DNA from: a virus
Lineage: Duplodnaviria > Heunggongvirae > Uroviricota > Caudoviricetes
Strand: one strand, 5' to 3'
Length of the DNA stretch: 54,562 nucleotides
IMG/VR virus record: IMGVR_UViG_2568526722_000002
Coordinates: 1 to 54,562 of that record
Both the position numbers and the translations under genes were made by a program. A model generated the notes under the pieces. The model was not told the origin of the DNA. It searched no databases and saw only the letters and a program-made list of their open reading frames with translations. Below, piece after piece: positions 11,958-48,207 of the stretch (positions are counted from its first letter, which is position 1; each line of letters begins with the position of its first letter).

Positions 11958-11977
11958 TACTGTTTTTATATACAGCA
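11958..11977. promoter_or_regulatory. LexA (SOS) box
   Basis: TACTGTTTTTATATACAGCA fits CTGT-N8-ACAG. Confidence 0.8.
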
Positions 11978-38414: not shown

Positions 38415-38442
38415 ATAAAAAAGCCCCGCACGATGGCGAGGC
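38415..38442 (-). terminator. intrinsic terminator (tR'-like, proximal to Q)
   Basis: Minus-strand read: GCCTCGC catcgt GCGGGGC followed by TTTTTTATTTGC (one G-U pair). Confidence 0.7.
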
Positions 38443-38508
38443 TCTTAATTCTTTGTCGACCTACGAAGCTATGGCGACGATATCAGATTTACATGAAATA
38501 TATGCGTT

Positions 38509-42357: not shown

Positions 42358-43047
42358 TCACACCATCCCGTTCGACTTGTTGCGGTTGTACTTGGCCAGC
42401 AGCAGCTGGATCGGCGTCGGCCCTTGCTCGGCAGCTGGTGCGGCAATAGCCCGGCGTACCGGCGGCACTGGCTTACCCTCGGTGACGCGCCTTTCCCACA
42501 TGTCCAGCAGATCGCCTGCCTCGCGTGCCAGTTCACCATGCGTTAACTGGCGCTCGGTGCTGCGGTGGCGCAATTCTACGCAAATGTGGTACATGACCGG
42601 CTGCGACCATGGAAATTGCTCGCTGGAGATGAATTCGAACGAGCGGTTACGCCAGTCCCAGTATTCGGCGATCACCTGGTCAACGTTGACGCCCAGCGCG
42701 CCGCCGCTCTGCTTGCACCAGGCGACGAACTGGCCCGGCGACGGCAGGAATGGGCGCTCCTGGCGGCGGGCAATGCGCATGCCGGCATCGACCTGAGCCA
42801 TGGTGTGGATCCCGTTCTCCTGAAACGCCAGCAGCCACTGACGGCGGAATTCGTTCAGGTCTTCCTGGGTGCGGAAGTTCGCCATGCTGGCCGGGAACGC
42901 GGCGCGCAGCTCGTTGAACAGCTTGTTGAATACCTGCGCCACCTGCTCGACCGGCGCGCACTCCTGGTACTGCTCTGGCAGGTTATGGGCCATGCGGCTC
43001 ATCTGCTCGCGGTCGTGGTTACGCATCTGCTCTGCAAGAGATTTCAT
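42358..43047 (-). CDS. replication protein P-like (helicase loader)
   Basis: 229 aa with an ATGA overlap with the O-like gene. The sequence is lambda-P-like as I recall it. Confidence 0.75.
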   Translation of the reverse strand: MKSLAEQMRNHDREQMSRMAHNLPEQYQECAPVEQVAQVFNKLFNELRAAFPASMANFRTQEDLNEFRRQWLLAFQENGIHTMAQVDAGMRIARRQERPFLPSPGQFVAWCKQSGGALGVNVDQVIAEYWDWRNRSFEFISSEQFPWSQPVMYHICVELRHRSTERQLTHGELAREAGDLLDMWERRVTEGKPVPPVRRAIAAPAAEQGPTPIQLLLAKYNRNKSNGMV

Positions 43048-43952
43048 CGGATCACCCCATAGGCCCAGTCAGTGTTGTTGAAGTCCAGATCTGGCTTGAC
43101 AGCGCGCTGCTCACCTCCGGCGTTACGCTGCATTGTCAGCTTGTCCCACTGCTTACGCAGGCTTTCGGGACTCAGGATGTTGGTCTGCCAGAAGTGGTGT
43201 TTGCTAGCCCAGTCATACAGCGCGCAGATGTCCTGGTGCGACCGGTTGTCTATCTGGCGCATCAGGCGAACAGTGTTAGACCAGGAGGTCATGTCCGGGG
43301 CTTTGCAGGTTGGGTTAATCAGCTTCACCCTGGAGGAAATCCACTTAGCTGTCTCGAGGTCTTCAGCAGAGCCCCACTTCGCACCGGATGGTGTGTAGAC
43401 CGCAGCTTCAGGATGAGTTGATAAAAATTTCTTCAGACGTGCGTCAGAGGATTCGTCAGAATTCTCGGACGAAGATCTTTTAATACTGTTCTTGTTCTTG
43501 TATTGGGTGTCTACCGTTTTCGGGAAGGTTATTCCTGATTTCGGGAAGGATTTTCCCGTTTTCGGGAATTTTCTTCCCGTTTCCGGTTTGTCTAAAATCC
43601 ATGCTGAAAGGTCAGTGTTTACACCGACGATTTTCATCATGCCCTGCTTCTGTGAAAAGATGATTTTGCGTTCTGCGAGAGACTTAAGCGCGTCCGATAC
43701 ATGCGTATCGCTCAGGCCCGTAAGCTCGGCAATAACCGTATTTGTCACGCGGTCCTGTTTCTTGTTCCAGCCGTAGGTAAGCCAGATCACCGCCTCAAAA
43801 CATTGCCATTCCCGGCCTGACAGTCTCAGGCGAGGCTTAAGCTGTTGGATCTCGTTAGCGACCTTGGTATACCCGTTCGACAGGTCGGCCATACGACCTC
43901 CCGGTTGTTCGGTTTTATTTGGGAAATTGATTATTTCAGCGGTGTTTGACAT
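43044..43952 (-). CDS. replication initiator O-like protein
   Basis: Start chosen at MSNTAEII with GGAGA SD. The N-terminal ...LSGREWQCFEAVIWLTYGWNKK... matches the replication-O N-terminal domain pattern. Iterons lie within the gene. Confidence 0.8.
   Translation of the reverse strand: MSNTAEIINFPNKTEQPGGRMADLSNGYTKVANEIQQLKPRLRLSGREWQCFEAVIWLTYGWNKKQDRVTNTVIAELTGLSDTHVSDALKSLAERKIIFSQKQGMMKIVGVNTDLSAWILDKPETGRKFPKTGKSFPKSGITFPKTVDTQYKNKNSIKRSSSENSDESSDARLKKFLSTHPEAAVYTPSGAKWGSAEDLETAKWISSRVKLINPTCKAPDMTSWSNTVRLMRQIDNRSHQDICALYDWASKHHFWQTNILSPESLRKQWDKLTMQRNAGGEQRAVKPDLDFNNTDWAYGVIR
43515..43595. promoter_or_regulatory. origin of replication iterons inside the O-like gene
   Basis: Four units spaced ~21 bp apart. 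Three have dyad symmetry: CGGGAA-N5-TTCC(C/T)G at 43521, 43542 and 43563. Confidence 0.7.
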
Positions 43953-44036
43953 ACTGTTCTCCGCAATTACGCACTGTTTTTGCACCTGAAAGCCGTTGGT
44001 GTTCGAGCACCGCGGCTTTCGCCATTTTTGAACCGG

Positions 44037-44576
44037 TCATATAGCCCCCAGCATAATCTGCACCATTTCCATCAACGGACCGGTTAACCCAGGGTCAACG
44101 CGATACATCTCCACGATCCCCTCGCTCAACTCTTTCAGCTTCTGATGACGTGGCGCATCCATTGCGACAGCAATCTTCGCTTCGCTGGTTTCCTTCTCCA
44201 GCCTTGCCAGACGAGCCATTACGTTGTCTTCTGGTAGCAGACGATTGCGGTATTCAATCGGCAGGACAGCGAGGATTGCCGGCGTCAGCTGGCGGACGTT
44301 CTCGCGGTACCGTTCGCTGTTGAAATGGTTATCCAGGAAGCGGAACAGCTTCTGCCGGGCACGGCTGTGATCTGCCGGAAAGTCGATACCTTCGCCACCT
44401 ATCCGGTGCCACTCTTCAACGATCAGGGCCGTTACAACGTCCTGCCCGGCTACTGCTGACCAGGCGCGAACAGCATCACGGAGGGCACCACAACTGACGC
44501 CCGGTTTTGGTTGAGCGCGATTTATCAGCGCTGCTGAAATGAACCCGTTACTCTGTTGATACGTAAGTGATTGCAT
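44037..44576 (-). CDS. CII-position regulatory protein (YdaT-like)
   Basis: 179 aa, immediately downstream of the cro-like gene. The family call is tentative. Confidence 0.5.
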   Translation of the reverse strand: MQSLTYQQSNGFISAALINRAQPKPGVSCGALRDAVRAWSAVAGQDVVTALIVEEWHRIGGEGIDFPADHSRARQKLFRFLDNHFNSERYRENVRQLTPAILAVLPIEYRNRLLPEDNVMARLARLEKETSEAKIAVAMDAPRHQKLKELSEGIVEMYRVDPGLTGPLMEMVQIMLGAI

Positions 44577-44587
44577 AGTTACATTCC

Positions 44588-44806
44588 TTACTTTGGTAAA
44601 CCGTCACTTGGGTTTGGATAGAGATCAGGGCGCAGCTCGTGTGGAGTTACGCCGGTAGCCGCGTAGATTTGAAGGACCCGATCAGCAGGCACCACGCCCT
44701 GGTACCGGTTTTTCCAGCGGCTGACCGACATCGGCTTGATGCCCAGCATGGTTGCGAGATTTGTTGCAGTGCCAGCGGACTTAATGGCTTTCGTTAACCC
44801 GTTCAT
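44588..44806 (-). CDS. Cro-like HTH protein (YdaS/Cro family)
   Basis: Start at MNGLTKAIKSAGTATNLATMLGIKPMSVSRWK with GGAGA SD. Divergent from the repressor across the operators. Confidence 0.75.
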   Translation of the reverse strand: MNGLTKAIKSAGTATNLATMLGIKPMSVSRWKNRYQGVVPADRVLQIYAATGVTPHELRPDLYPNPSDGLPK

Positions 44807-44834
44807 CGTTGTCTCCGATTTGAATACAATCAAA

Positions 44835-44900
44835 TTAAGCCTGAGGCTTAATTTATTGTCAAGCCTGAGGCGAATTTTCAAGTTTAAGCAAAAGGCTTAT
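44835..44900. promoter_or_regulatory. right operator region: three 17-bp operators plus the PR/PRM region
   Basis: TTAAGCCTGAGGCTTAA (44835-44851, perfect palindrome), TCAAGCCTGAGGCGAAT (44859-44875) and TTAAGCAAAAGGCTTAT (44884-44900). Minus-strand TTGACA at 44862-44857. Confidence 0.75.
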
Positions 44901-44910
44901 TCTTCTAACC

Positions 44911-45297
44911 ATGAAAGAGAAAACCGTACTTAATCCGATACTTGTCGAACGCCTTTCAGAGCTGAACGGGCGCGGTATGACCAAATCCGATATGGCCAGG
45001 GTTGCTGGGGTAACCCCGCAGTCTGTGAACGGCTGGTTTAAAAAAGGCGTGATCAGCAAGAAATCAGCTCTCGCTGTCGCTGACGCAGCTGGCGTGTCTG
45101 TGCCTTGGTTACTCGGTGAGGATGTCGGCGAGAAGGACGGACTTAAGCCGGACGAACAGCGCCTGCTTGAGCTCTACCGCCAGCTGCCAGAAGAAGAGCA
45201 ACAGAACATGCTCCGCATCTTTTCGATACGTCTTAAGGAACTGGATGAGCTGTATGAGAAGTACATGAAGGGGCGGATTCGCTCGCAGGGGGACTGA
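44911..45297 (+). CDS. CI-like repressor, HTH_XRE, without an S24 autocleavage domain
   Basis: 128 aa. ...MTKSDMARVAGVTPQSVNGWFKKGVISKKSALAVADAAGVSVPWLL.... It has a short helical C-terminus and no Ala-Gly / Ser...Lys signature. Confidence 0.8.
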   Translation: MKEKTVLNPILVERLSELNGRGMTKSDMARVAGVTPQSVNGWFKKGVISKKSALAVADAAGVSVPWLLGEDVGEKDGLKPDEQRLLELYRQLPEEEQQNMLRIFSIRLKELDELYEKYMKGRIRSQGD

Positions 45298-45437
45298 ATC
45301 GCTTTAGGTTTGTCCTGAATTTTTAGTTCCCATGAGACAATGATGTCTTTACTGGGGGGTGATTCCGCCATTTATGTTAGATTGAAAAAACTATCAATTT
45401 AATTAATATTTATCACTACTACACGGGATGTTTTGCA

Positions 45438-46742
45438 ATGACAGCTGAGATTGTTGTAATAAATAATACTGGAATCGCCCTTGCTGCTGACTCTGCAGTC
45501 ACCACAGAGCATAATAGATTAGTAAAAATAAATAATAGTGCGGAAAAACTATTCGAACTATCTAAACACCATCCCGTGGGGATCATGATTTATAATAATG
45601 CGACACTGGGTGGCGCACCGTGGGAACTTATAATTAAATCCTATAGAAAACAATTGGGGAAAACTAGTTTCCCTACCATTAAAGAATATGTTAATGACTT
45701 TGTAAAATTCATCAATGGTAACTCAGACCTTATAACAAATGAAATGAGAGAGGCTTGCGTTATAAACCTTGTTGTTGATAACCTCAAAGGTTTGATGAGA
45801 TACATTAATGATAATAATGTAGTAAACTATTTAACAATGAACCCCGCCGTTGAACTCGACAATGTTATTTTTCAAAACATAGTTAAGCAAGCCTTTGATT
45901 TAGAGATAGGAATCTTAAGGAATAATCTCTTTTTCGAAGGGTTTGATACAGAAGAGTTTAATGATGCTTTAGCATATATACAAGATTTAATATCGCCATA
46001 CATTTCATCAATTATTGTTCTTGATAACTGTGAAAATATACAGCAAGAGCTTATGGAAAAAGTCATATTATATTCCACTTGTTTAATTTTCAAAGTCCAT
46101 GCTAGTCGTACATATTCAGGGATTGTTATAACAGGTTATGGAGAGGAAGAATATTACCCTTCCATTTGCACTCTTCATATCTACGGCATTTTTAAAAACA
46201 AATTGATGATCCATAATATTGATGATAAATCCCATAATGAGGTAACCAATATGGGGTTTGTTATACCATTTGCTCAAGAAGATGAAGTAGTAACTTTCAT
46301 TGATGGGTGCAACCCTAACATCATTAATTTTAACAGAACTCTTACAGAGGAAGTTTTTGATCGGCTTAATCATTATGTTTCTAGCAATATTTTCCCTGCA
46401 ATGAACAATGGAGTACTAGCCAATCACTTCTCCAGTGAAATTGAGGAACTCAAAAACGTACTTTTACAAGATCACGATACTAAACTTGAAAGCTATATTG
46501 TTAATAACCATACAAATAAAATGATATCGATGTTGCAATCACTTGGGAAGGCAGATCTTGCGTATATGGCCGAATCATTAGTGAACATCACTGCATTCAA
46601 AAGAAAAGTATCACATGATTATGAAACTGTCGGTGGGCCTGTTGATGTCGCTGTGATATCAAAAGTTGATGGATTTGTTTGGGTAAATCGTAAACACTAC
46701 TTCCCTAAAGAGCTAAACTCTAACTACTTTAATCGTCAATAA
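45438..46742 (+). CDS. proteasome-beta/HslV-like Ntn-hydrolase homologue with large insertions (434 aa)
   Basis: N-terminus M-TAEIVVINNTGIALAADSAVT...SAEKLFEL and C-terminus ETVGGPVDVAVISKVDGFVWV mirror 20S beta TTTVGI..AVIMATERRVT...GKKLFQI and [21 protein letters not shown]. The gene is AT-rich. Confidence 0.6.
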   Translation: MTAEIVVINNTGIALAADSAVTTEHNRLVKINNSAEKLFELSKHHPVGIMIYNNATLGGAPWELIIKSYRKQLGKTSFPTIKEYVNDFVKFINGNSDLITNEMREACVINLVVDNLKGLMRYINDNNVVNYLTMNPAVELDNVIFQNIVKQAFDLEIGILRNNLFFEGFDTEEFNDALAYIQDLISPYISSIIVLDNCENIQQELMEKVILYSTCLIFKVHASRTYSGIVITGYGEEEYYPSICTLHIYGIFKNKLMIHNIDDKSHNEVTNMGFVIPFAQEDEVVTFIDGCNPNIINFNRTLTEEVFDRLNHYVSSNIFPAMNNGVLANHFSSEIEELKNVLLQDHDTKLESYIVNNHTNKMISMLQSLGKADLAYMAESLVNITAFKRKVSHDYETVGGPVDVAVISKVDGFVWVNRKHYFPKELNSNYFNRQ

Positions 46743-46759
46743 CACATAAGGAGATATTA

Positions 46760-46864
46760 ATGTCTATAAAGCAAGCTCTCAATAACGCTTATAAAATCAT
46801 TGTAAATCAAAAATTTGGTAATAAAGAACAGCAGCACTCGCCGAAAGGATTTAACCAGCAGTAA
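46760..46864 (+). CDS. 34-aa micro-protein co-transcribed with the Ntn-hydrolase-like gene
   Basis: MSIKQALNNAYKIIVNQKFGNKEQQHSPKGFNQQ. An AAGGAG SD lies 7 nt upstream. It ends 3 nt before the terminator and is below the ORF-track cut-off. Confidence 0.45.
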   Translation: MSIKQALNNAYKIIVNQKFGNKEQQHSPKGFNQQ

Positions 46865-46866
46865 TG

Positions 46867-46896
46867 AAAAAACCCGGCCACAGCGCCGGGTTTTTT
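46867..46896 (+). terminator. intrinsic (bidirectional-looking) terminator
   Basis: AAAAAA CCCGGC cacagc GCCGGG TTTTTT. Confidence 0.8.
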
Positions 46897-46942
46897 ACAC
46901 CCTCACCCACCATCTCAGCCGCCAACACCCAGCCACGAAGTC

Positions 46943-46975
46943 CCCGATCTCGACCTTAGCGTCGGGATTTTTTTT
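46943..46975 (+). terminator. second terminator-like hairpin with T8
   Basis: CCCGA ..14 nt.. TCGGG a TTTTTTTT. Confidence 0.4.
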
Positions 46976-47000
46976 GCCTGCAATTCGGTGAACATCACGA

Positions 47001-47067
47001 TTAAGCCTGAAACTTACAATCACATTTCGCCTGGAGCTTGACATGATTTAAGTCTCAGGCTTAATAT
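47001..47067 (+). promoter_or_regulatory. left operators plus PL promoter
   Basis: TTAAGCCTGAAACTTAC (47001-47017) and TTAAGTCTCAGGCTTAA (47048-47064). Promoter is TTGACA (47038-47043)-18-TAATAT (47062-47067), with the operator in the spacer. Confidence 0.7.
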
Positions 47068-47318
47068 GCAATCACCAAGACGCACCACGAACCACCCAGG
47101 CATGGAGCCCACGAAGAAGCCGTCCGGGGCATACGAAGACCGGAATGAGGTGGTGAGATTAACGCGCAGTAGGTTTGAAACGTTCCGCCAGCCTGGCGAC
47201 AAGGGCAAAGCACAGAGTGAGCTTCGCGGTGGTGAATTGCAGAGTTAAAACGCTCAACCGTGAAGATCAGCGCCGCGGCACCACCAGCGAAGTTCACTCA
47301 GAAAAACTGGAGAACATC

Positions 47319-47536: not shown

Positions 47537-47698
47537 ATGTTAGACAAGAAATGCGGATATTGCGGCAAGCCGGTTAAAACGGAGGAAGTAATCAAGAGCA
47601 CCCTTCTCTATCGCAACGGCTCACAGCTGGCGCGCAAAGAAAAAGAGTATTGCTCCAAACGTTGCGCTTCGCACGACCAGATGGCTCACGAAGGCTAA
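47537..47698 (+). CDS. 53-aa zinc-ribbon protein
   Basis: [13 protein letters not shown]...[10 protein letters not shown] (CxxC...CxxxC), with GGAGGA SD. It is below the ORF-track cut-off. Confidence 0.5.
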
Positions 47699-47703
47699 CG
47701 GTG

Positions 47704-48207
47704 ATGAATATGCGAGAAAAATTATCACTGGCACGACTGAAGGAATTGCTCAGCTACTCGCCTGAAACAGGAGCATTCACATGGCTCAAAAATCGCGGAC
47801 GGATAACCGCAGGTGATTTTGCTGGAAATTTAGATACGCGCGGCTATGTACGAATCATCATCGATGGAAAGAAATACAGAGCACACCGCTTGGCCTGGCT
47901 TTATACACACGGAAAATGGCCTTAAGACCAGATTGACCATGTGAATGGAAATTGCTCTGACAACAGGCTGGAGAATCTCCGCGAGGCTACTTGCTCACAG
48001 AATAACTTCAATAAACCGCTTCAGAAAAATAATACGAGCGGAGTGAAAGGAGTTTATTGGCACAAAGGGAAACAACGCTGGACAGCCATGTGCCGAGTTA
48101 ATGGCAAAAGATTCACGGTAGGAACTTTTATTGAATTAGAAAAGGCTGCGGAAGCAATACGCGACTTCCGCAAAGCGAATCATGGTTCATTTGCCAGGAA
48201 TTCATAA
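47704..48207 (+). pseudogene. HNH_3 + AP2-type homing endonuclease interrupted by one in-frame TAA (47923-47925)
   Basis: ...[42 protein letters not shown]...GVKGVYWHKGKQRWTAMCRVNGKRFTVGTF. ORFs 47650-47925 and 47941-48207 are in the same frame. Confidence 0.75.

Follow-up and report, generated by a model that had tools for sequence, protein, structure and literature searches.

The probable immunity region, its operators and its promoters

The DNA analysed here is the virus record IMGVR_UViG_2568526722_000002 of IMG/VR (Caudoviricetes; 54,562 nucleotides, hereafter the window), and the element in question is centred on positions 44,835 to 47,067. Judged from its sequence and by analogy with characterized prophages, this stretch is very probably the immunity switch of a lambdoid Escherichia coli prophage of the Rac/Gifsy type. 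The early region has the gene order of the phage lambda map in mirror image. The repressor gene (plus strand) and a cro-like gene (minus strand) are divergent and separated by 104 bp containing the rightward operator (OR), and a second operator (OL) lies beyond an accessory gene (moron), in front of the plus-strand genes kil, ydaE, recE and recT. Chromosomal prophages with 99.5-99.9% identity to the sequence occur in 12 complete genomes of E. coli, among them the natural lysogen Res13-Sevr-PER07-33 (NZ_CP062811; 99.8%), and 13 of 5426 genomes contain 80% or more of the 2.8-kb segment. The locus is composed of the following genes and terminators:

42358-43047, minus strand: replication protein P
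43044-43985, minus strand: replication protein O
44037-44576, minus strand: YdaT/CII-like activator, 179 aa (phrog_163, E 5e-54)
44588-44806, minus strand: Cro-like protein of the YdaS family, 72 aa, first gene of the operon of the rightward promoter PR (profile matches)
44911-45297, plus strand: immunity repressor, 128 aa, HTH_3 (profile match, predicted structure)
45438-46742, plus strand: AT-rich accessory gene (moron), 434 aa, between the repressor gene and OL
46867-46896, plus strand: intrinsic terminator closing the repressor-moron unit (-18 kcal/mol, z -4.9)
46946-46977, plus strand: second terminator-like hairpin with a U-run

A preliminary description of this DNA had proposed five 17-bp operators with TTAAGC-N5-GCTTAA symmetry, three at OR and two at OL, serving a CI-like repressor and the Cro-like protein. 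We compared them with the corresponding regions of relatives from seven phage records and 50 genomes of many enterobacterial genera (58 loci); type A denotes the immunity type of the window. With one addition at OL, the operators are:

44835-44851: OR1, TTAAGCCTGAGGCTTAA, perfect palindrome (8+1+8) between the -35 and -10 elements of PR; position kept in type-A relatives
44859-44875: OR2, TCAAGCCTGAGGCGAAT, degenerate; overlaps the PR -35 and adjoins the -35 of the repressor promoter PRM; variant half-site ATTCGCC, found likewise in relatives and in OL2
44884-44900: OR3, TTAAGCAAAAGGCTTAT; lies over the PRM spacer and the initial 3 nt of the PRM -10
47001-47017: OL3, TTAAGCCTGAAACTTAC
47025-47041: OL2, TTTCGCCTGGAGCTTGA, newly added, degenerate; overlaps the -35 of the leftward promoter PL
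47048-47064: OL1, TTAAGTCTCAGGCTTAA; fills the PL spacer and overlaps its -10

All five of the sites proposed earlier can be read directly from the sequence, and OR1 is symmetric at 8 of 8 pairs. The number of three holds for OR, and that of two has to be raised for OL: the segment 47025-47041 is the top match of a position weight matrix (PWM) outside the training sites, has equivalents in relatives, falls exactly between the two OL sites already noted and is nearly the same as OR2 when the latter is read in the PR direction (ATTCGCCTCAGGCTTGA). This sixth site makes OL tripartite like OR. The centres of the sites are regularly phased, at 44843, 44867 and 44892 in OR (24 and 25 bp apart) and at 47009, 47033 and 47056 in OL (24 and 23 bp apart). 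The PWM, built from the five original sites, ranks these sites 1 to 5 across the 54.5-kb window. Matches to TTAAGCNNNNNGCTTAA with at most one mismatch number 3 for 0.18 expected in the window, a count that none of 100 shuffles reaches, and all three matches to TTAAGC-N5-GCTTAA at this level fall in the two control regions. With up to two mismatches there are 5 matches for 2.16 expected, and 6 of 100 shuffles reach 5; this bare count is not significant, and four of the five matches are located in the two control regions of about 70 bp.

The six type-A loci provide 36 sites, i.e. 72 half-sites, with the consensus TTAAGYCT. The G at position 5 is invariant (72/72) and the centre of the sites is variable, so that TTAAGYC-N3-GRCTTAA is a better description of the operator than TTAAGC-N5-GCTTAA. 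A search of the literature, as far as it is searchable, found no operator strings with the half-site TTAAGYC. In OR2 and OL2 alike, the promoter-distal half is a conserved variant, (A/T)TTCGCC, in place of TTAAGYC, and the same variant half is present at the equivalent sites of four relatives (L004, L005, L012 and L013); this conservation suggests that a weak site, or else a second function, has been selected for.

The relatives retain three OR sites with centres at about -67, -43 and -18 from the repressor ATG, the starts of cro and of the repressor gene being 97-107 bp apart. An OL pair with a spacing of 45-48 bp is found in about 41 of the 58 loci, 0.45-2.9 kb downstream, the distance being variable because the cargo between the repressor gene and PL differs. 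The operator sequence changes together with the helix-turn-helix (HTH) of the repressor and the Cro sequence, and the 3+3 geometry is constant. For instance, the E. coli prophages L002 and L003 are natural heteroimmune counterparts of the window: they keep the flanks and an almost identical repressor C-terminus and differ in HTH, Cro and operator (TAAACC-N-GATTTA types). They carry 3 OR sites and 2/3 sites on PL, and TACAAT is located 6 nt before the repressor ATG with no Shine-Dalgarno (SD) sequence. More generally, the C-terminal half of the repressor is nearly invariant among heteroimmune relatives. Since the outer half-sites are conserved, the centre is variable and the motif is tied to the HTH type, these sequences are best explained as protein operators and not as hairpins or chance repeats; position, phasing and the comparison of relatives thus favour the operator assignment made earlier.

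The promoter elements associated with the operators are:

44862-44857, minus strand: PR -35, TTGACA (sequence; within the PR/PL alignment)
44832-44839, minus strand: PR -10 region, from the end of OR1; candidates CTTAAT (17-bp spacer), TTAATT (18) and TAATTT (19)
47038-47067, plus strand: PL, strong promoter, TTGACA-18 bp-TAATAT, 10/12 matches (hexamers at 47038-43 and 47062-67)
44875-44880, plus strand: candidate PRM -35, TTTTCA, 17 bp before TATTCT
44898-44903, plus strand: PRM -10, TATTCT, which ends 7 nt ahead of the repressor ATG; transcription predicted to begin at A44911 (or C44910)

The two early promoters had been described as near-identical in architecture, each with a TTGACA followed by an operator that fills the spacer and overlaps the -10, and this is what the sequence contains. 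In both PR and PL, O2 overlaps the TTGACA hexamer, whereas the spacer is taken up by O1, which also provides the -10. An alignment of the two regions agrees at 65 of 94 positions and includes a block, made up of the -35 and O1, that is almost the same in both. The PR -35 is one base farther from O1 than its PL counterpart, which makes the PR -10 ambiguous. Between OR1 and the ribosome-binding site of cro, positions 44818-44835 form a perfect 6-6-6 palindrome, ATTTGA-N6-TCAAAT with ATACAA at its centre. We considered it as a site for the YdaT/CII-like protein and rejected it: it is not conserved in other type-A loci, being common only to the nearly identical L012, and is within chance expectation, so that it probably arose by chance.

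The repressor and its predicted leaderless transcript

The repressor contains a single Pfam domain scoring above the curated cutoff, HTH_3 (PF01381; 29.1 bits for a cutoff of 23, E 1e-6). Its AlphaFold2 (AF2) model (predicted local distance difference test, pLDDT, 85) begins with a domain of five helices, which a linker joins to a helix-turn-long-helix hairpin (residues 80-126); the model shows no peptidase (S24) fold. The N-terminal 65 residues superimpose on the N-terminal domain of P22 c2 with a root-mean-square deviation of 1.6-1.7 A and a target-normalised TM score of 0.78-0.79, and Foldseek also matches the N-terminal domain to the 434 repressor, Cro and the SinR N-terminal domain. In a sequence search of the PDB, the top matches, to polyubiquitin, are spurious (a repeated 23-residue stretch) and were discarded; the real signal is a marginal match to the 434 repressor. 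The repressor family comprises 916 clusters at E <= 1e-5, from Enterobacterales, all named 'helix-turn-helix domain-containing protein'. The Cro-like protein matches the YdaS family (E 1.3e-14), P22_Cro (E 1.2e-6) and a prophage Cro of the PDB (E 9e-7); the same type of sequence search found no PDB relative of the YdaT-like protein.

The repressor gene starts with AUG, which predicts the N-terminus MKEKT, and no ATG, GTG or TTG is present upstream of 44911 within its open reading frame (ORF). OR3 covers the PRM spacer and the first three bases of the PRM -10, and OR2 ends at the PRM -35. The earlier suggestion that TATTCT lies inside the third operator holds in part, the hexamer overlapping OR3 by just 3 nt; its first base is 13 nt upstream of the ATG, in agreement with the distance of about 10-15 nt then given. 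The absence of an SD sequence, also claimed at that time, is borne out, with no SD-like core within 18 nt of the repressor ATG in the window.

We examined the position of the promoter relative to the start codon in 56 distinct upstream regions of relatives, with 603 ORF starts of the same loci as controls; a -10-like hexamer was defined by A at position 2, T at position 6 and at least 4/6 matches. In 53 of 56 relatives such a hexamer ends at a distance of 5-8 nt from the repressor ATG, compared with 11% of control starts, and in 38 of 56 this distance is exactly 6 nt. SD-like cores are found in 4 of 56 relatives versus 38% of controls. The start codon is ATG at all 58 loci (the ATG nearest the aligned first methionine was picked). 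In the E. coli O157:H7 prophage CP-933P, the paaR2 repressor mRNA is leaderless, as determined by 5'-RACE and N-terminal sequencing (PMC8630535), and its geometry, with a mapped start, has 6 nt between the -10 and the ATG for 7 nt in the window. Leaderless mRNAs are also known for racR, dicA and ymfK (PMC4681348, PMC9638921). The repressor mRNA of the window should accordingly be leaderless by sequence and analogy, with transcription starting at, or no more than 1 nt from, the A of the ATG. The fixed distance of the -10, the lack of SD sequences and the CP-933P analogy thus lend computational support to the likeness with cI transcribed from PRM that had been drawn before.

Many members of the repressor family are annotated as proteins of 137-161 aa (P0012, P0019, P0022-24, P0055 and others; L002 1833-2246), because gene callers extend the ORF to an upstream GTG and read through OR3. 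The ATG conserved in the family gives repressors of 124-134 aa, consistent with a leaderless start.

Proposed circuit, its alternatives and adjacent elements

We propose that dimers of the 128-aa repressor recognize the 17-bp pseudo-palindromes, with half-site TTAAGYC, at OR (44835-44900) and OL (47001-47064). The phasing of 23-25 bp is lambda-like, and repressor occupying the strong O1 and the weak O2 sites would block both early promoters, PR (minus strand) directing transcription of cro, ydaT, O and P, and PL (plus strand) that of kil, ydaE, recE and recT; as O2 is degenerate, it probably needs cooperativity. Because OR2 ends at the weak PRM -35 (TTTTCA), repressor bound there could activate PRM, and OR3, which lies over the PRM spacer and the TATTCT -10, would silence PRM once the repressor is abundant. 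For the Cro-like protein, the same sites with the opposite preference are expected. The PRM transcript would begin at or within 1 nt of the repressor ATG, giving a leaderless mRNA. The sites, their phasing, the promoter geometry, and the conservation and co-variation of these features are directly established, and from this geometry, this co-variation and the analogy with known prophages we infer that the repressor binds cooperatively and activates PRM, where transcription starts, and how the antirepressor considered below takes part in induction.

As the repressor is devoid of an autocleavage domain, induction most likely depends on an antirepressor that is under LexA control and whose gene lies in another part of the prophage. 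Some 0.95 kb past gene P, the minus strand carries in this order a terminator, a LexA box, dinI, an 82-aa ORF with a GTG start and a DUF1367 gene:

41510-41480, minus strand: terminator
41420-41401, minus strand: near-consensus LexA box TACTGTATAAAAACACAGTA, just past the terminator and before the dinI homologue
41382-41149, minus strand: DinI homologue, first gene of a putative LexA-controlled operon
41031-40783, minus strand: 82-aa ORF with GTG start, candidate antirepressor by position (phrog_340, function not assigned)

A study of Gifsy prophages describes the same arrangement of LexA box, dinI and antirepressor gene with a non-canonical start codon (PMC3121763). The putative antirepressor would induce the prophage as in Gifsy phages, and, by its layout, the window likely belongs to the Gifsy-type repressor/antirepressor family. 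At 38420-38493 (minus strand) the window encodes isrJ (Rfam RF01393, 68.7 bits), a small RNA (sRNA) that Gifsy-type islands of Salmonella are known to carry. Two further exact matches to CTGT-N8-ACAG are present at 11960-11975 and 46028-46043 (total of 3 for 0.49 expected); the latter LexA-box core is located within the moron coding sequence and is probably due to chance.

Several observations weigh against parts of this scheme. TATTCT (4/6) is the weakest PRM -10 of the family, and as it ends 7 nt from the ATG, compared with 6 nt in 38 of 56 relatives, a 1-nt leader starting at C44910 is equally possible. At PR, TAATTT alone among the candidate hexamers combines an A at -11 with a T at -7, and it requires a 19-bp spacer. 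OR2 and OL2 are poor matches to the consensus (10/14), and their occupancy leans on assumed cooperativity. Finally, the repressor of CP-933P, PaaR2, shares 21% identity with the window repressor over 43 C-terminal residues (E 9e-4).

Other explanations have to be weighed against this proposal. It is extremely unlikely that the palindromes, instead of being operators, form hairpins that act as terminators or attenuators, or are repeats that arose by chance in intergenic DNA rich in A and T. The OR1 palindrome does score in a scan for terminators, on the minus strand, with an 11-pair stem, 3 GC pairs and a T-rich tail, and the count at up to two mismatches (5 for 2.2 expected) does not exceed chance significantly. 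However, only one of the six sites is a good palindrome, and OR1, being upstream of the PR start, would not be fully transcribed. Moreover, the two sets of sites are phased at 23-25 bp and each superimposed on a TTGACA promoter, the excess at up to one mismatch is clear (3 for 0.18 expected), and the conservation of outer half-site positions in relatives (G5 in 72/72) with varying centres, together with the switch of motif with the repressor HTH type, points to recognition by a protein. The sites could also serve mainly the Cro/YdaS-like protein, the 128-aa protein being no maintenance repressor but, e.g., a regulator of the accessory gene alone. The precedent is PaaR2, first described as the regulator of a downstream toxin-antitoxin pair (PMC8630535), and the 128-aa gene likewise heads an operon with an accessory gene. 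PaaR2 nevertheless proved to be the CI equivalent. In addition, the HTH of the 128-aa protein co-varies with the operator type, its gene stays beside OR while the downstream cargo differs among relatives, the homologue in phage mEp237 is annotated as prophage repressor, and a second set of sites on PL fits only a global regulator repressing the early genes; we thus find this alternative very unlikely.

The operators may be real and the repressor mRNA nonetheless mainly leadered, originating from a PRE-type (establishment) promoter in cro/ydaT or from a second PRM and translated through non-canonical ribosome binding. The racR gene has three mapped starts, of which one is leaderless (PMC9638921), the presence of a YdaT/CII-like activator leads one to expect an establishment promoter with a long leader during infection, and TATTCT is a weak -10. 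Against this stand the lack of SD-like sequences within 18 nt in the window and in 52 of 56 relatives, so that a leadered transcript would lack an SD too, and the -10 at 5-8 nt in 53 of 56 relatives (11% of controls), which makes little sense if transcription does not start at the ATG; with the like geometry of CP-933P, the ATG's first base is the transcript start (PMC8630535). A gene can have both leadered and leaderless transcripts, as from PRE and PRM of lambda or in racR, so the question is mostly one of proportions, and we judge a mainly leadered mRNA unlikely. As for induction, we give next to no credence to a RecA-stimulated self-cleavage of the repressor taking the place of an antirepressor. 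Self-cleavage is the textbook lambdoid route and the prophage carries a homologue of DinI, a RecA modulator, but the repressor is a 128-aa protein with an HTH_3 match only and no peptidase S24 fold in its model, and the near-consensus LexA box heads an operon of dinI and a small ORF where Gifsy phages encode antirepressors (PMC3121763).

Taking operators, leaderless transcript and antirepressor together, one may speculate that the whole short-repressor family (more than 900 Enterobacterales clusters) shares one fixed design, a reading that we hold to be possible and put forward tentatively. In this design, the repressor may be obligatorily translated from a leaderless mRNA, the -10 being built into OR3 at a fixed distance; the nearly invariant C-terminal helical hairpin may be an oligomerization surface joining OR to OL, 2.2 kb apart in the window, by looping; and all the antirepressors under LexA control may act on this same hairpin, with the result that heteroimmune prophages sharing a cell would be co-induced. 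The switch between the TTAAGCC (type A) and GTAAACC (type B, as in NZ_CP100890) operator types may rest on very few residues; the HTH difference between these two types consists essentially of Ser27/Ser38 versus Ala, plus the N-terminal arm.

The half-site TTAAGYC adds one further immunity specificity to the lambdoid repertoire, and the lambda design of 3+3 phased operators, common PR/PL architecture and leaderless repressor mRNA would recur here little altered without the C-terminal domain of lambda CI. From a practical point of view, automatic annotation often reaches back to an upstream GTG, the conserved start being the leaderless ATG, and the operator type, being readable from sequence, can serve to predict which prophages are co-immune. 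The present understanding of phage switches is unchanged.

Downstream of PL, the first ~110 nt of the transcript before kil (47092-47198, plus strand) correspond to an RNA element that is conserved and structured; it occurs in 44 of the 58 related loci irrespective of immunity type and contains no conserved ORF. The element contains four helices, with 97.8% paired cells compared with 24-46% in slid controls and 64 compensatory cells compared with 2-9 in controls; none of 500 shuffles attains the observed value. No Rfam family matches the element, and the 12 phage records in which it occurs all lack an annotation for it. In CP-933P, too, PL is followed by a copy, a weaker one. We rejected the put RNA of HK022 as a relative, since the covariance model finds nothing in the early regions of that phage; the element could act as an antiterminator in the manner of put, or as a leader through which kil is controlled. 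Beyond PL of the window, no N-like gene was seen. The 60-aa ORF at 47066-47248 was discarded as a candidate: its ATG lies within the PL -10, it has no family matches and it is interrupted by a stop codon in L002 and L003. Between ydaE and recE, two adjacent plus-strand ORFs of 91 and 88 aa (47650-47925 and 47941-48207) resemble, as judged from sequence, the two halves of a homing endonuclease of the HNH/AP2 type; in the close relative NZ_CP062811, both the ydaE-recE interval and recE are shorter.

The 434-aa moron product (phrog_5990) matched no Pfam family and no PADLOC defence model. Its family includes more than 6000 clusters, all 'hypothetical', in which Met1-Thr2, Asp18 and Lys30/37 are invariant. 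The best PDB matches of its AF2 model (pLDDT 87) are 20S proteasome beta subunits and Anbu (Foldseek E 4e-5, probability 1.0), and the model carries two large helical insertions; the modelled fold raises the possibility that the protein may be an N-terminal-threonine hydrolase. A promoter-like TTGAAA-N16-TAATAT (45382-45409) is present just upstream of the gene (region 45340-45437). Its spacer holds an A6 run (45386-45391), which is A7 in close relatives, giving a spacer of 17. The additional A puts the ATG at 45340 in frame, hence a PGAP call of 467 aa; the family length of 427-434 aa suggests that this extension is an artefact.

Comparison with known systems

The window shares with lambda the divergent repressor and cro genes, three 17-bp pseudo-palindromic operators each at OR and OL with spacers of 6-8 bp (7 and 6 in lambda OR), the location of O1 and O2 over PR and PL, of O3 over PRM and of O2 beside the PRM -35, the leaderless repressor mRNA (predicted in the window) and an accessory gene after the repressor, at the position of rexAB. 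In contrast, the window repressor has a short helical C-terminal hairpin in place of the S24 peptidase/oligomerization domain, so that cleavage mediated by RecA is not to be expected; its operators bear no relation in sequence to those of lambda, a protein of the YdaT family takes the part of CII, and, as noted above, no N-like gene was seen after PL. The N-terminal domains of P22 c2 and of the 434 repressor resemble that of the window repressor in fold, with an identity of only 18-29%, and these proteins carry a cleavable C-terminal domain.

The Rac prophage of E. coli K-12, whose repressor RacR has 158 aa, resembles the window by the presence of kil, ydaE, recE and recT downstream of PL. The leaderless promoter is the strongest of the three mapped racR starts (PMC9638921), and the ydaS promoter combines a perfect TTGACA -35 with a TAATAT -10 (PMC9638921, PMC5700373). 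Rac differs in its operators, nine monomer-type sites in three protected areas having been proposed for RacR instead of three 17-bp palindromes (PMC9638921, PMC5700373).

Gifsy-1 and Gifsy-3 encode the repressors GfoR and GfhR with the LexA-controlled antirepressors GfoA and GfhA (Lemire et al., 2011; PMC3121763). The likeness to the window extends to a short non-cleavable repressor, to heteroimmune relatives with a conserved non-DNA-binding part, and to a separate module of LexA box, dinI and GTG-initiated small ORF downstream of the replication genes. The Gifsy-1-associated sRNA isrJ is found in the window too. The sole sequence link to the Gifsy repressors is a GenBank note on the homologue from mEp237, which has 74% identity to the window repressor; the note likens it to a regulator of S. 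Typhimurium 14028S.

CP-933P (Sp12), whose locus was found after rebuilding the 5' end of paaR2 from primer sequences, offers the closest parallel in design. PaaR2 and YdaS footprint a 97-bp intergenic region (Jurenas et al., 2021; PMC8630535), compared with 104 bp in the window; there are 3 OR and 3 OL operators in both, the PL -35 and -10 are the same as those of PR, and PaaR2 at low level activates PRM (PMC8630535). Experiments on CP-933P also showed that repressor and Cro both bind the operators, cooperatively and with opposite preferences among the sites (PMC8630535). Both systems have a short repressor (123 aa in CP-933P) heading an accessory-gene operon, a YdaS-like Cro and a YdaT-like CII. 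The CP-933P operators are GTTTAGTAA-type repeats and the cargo is a toxin-antitoxin pair, in contrast to the 434-aa protein of the window. PaaR2 was rejected as a direct homologue, the similarity being weak and confined to the C-terminus; as the two repressors are barely alignable, CP-933P is an analogue by design and not a member of the family. Its -10 (GATAAT) ends 6 nt before the ATG, which is the modal geometry of the repressor family of the window.

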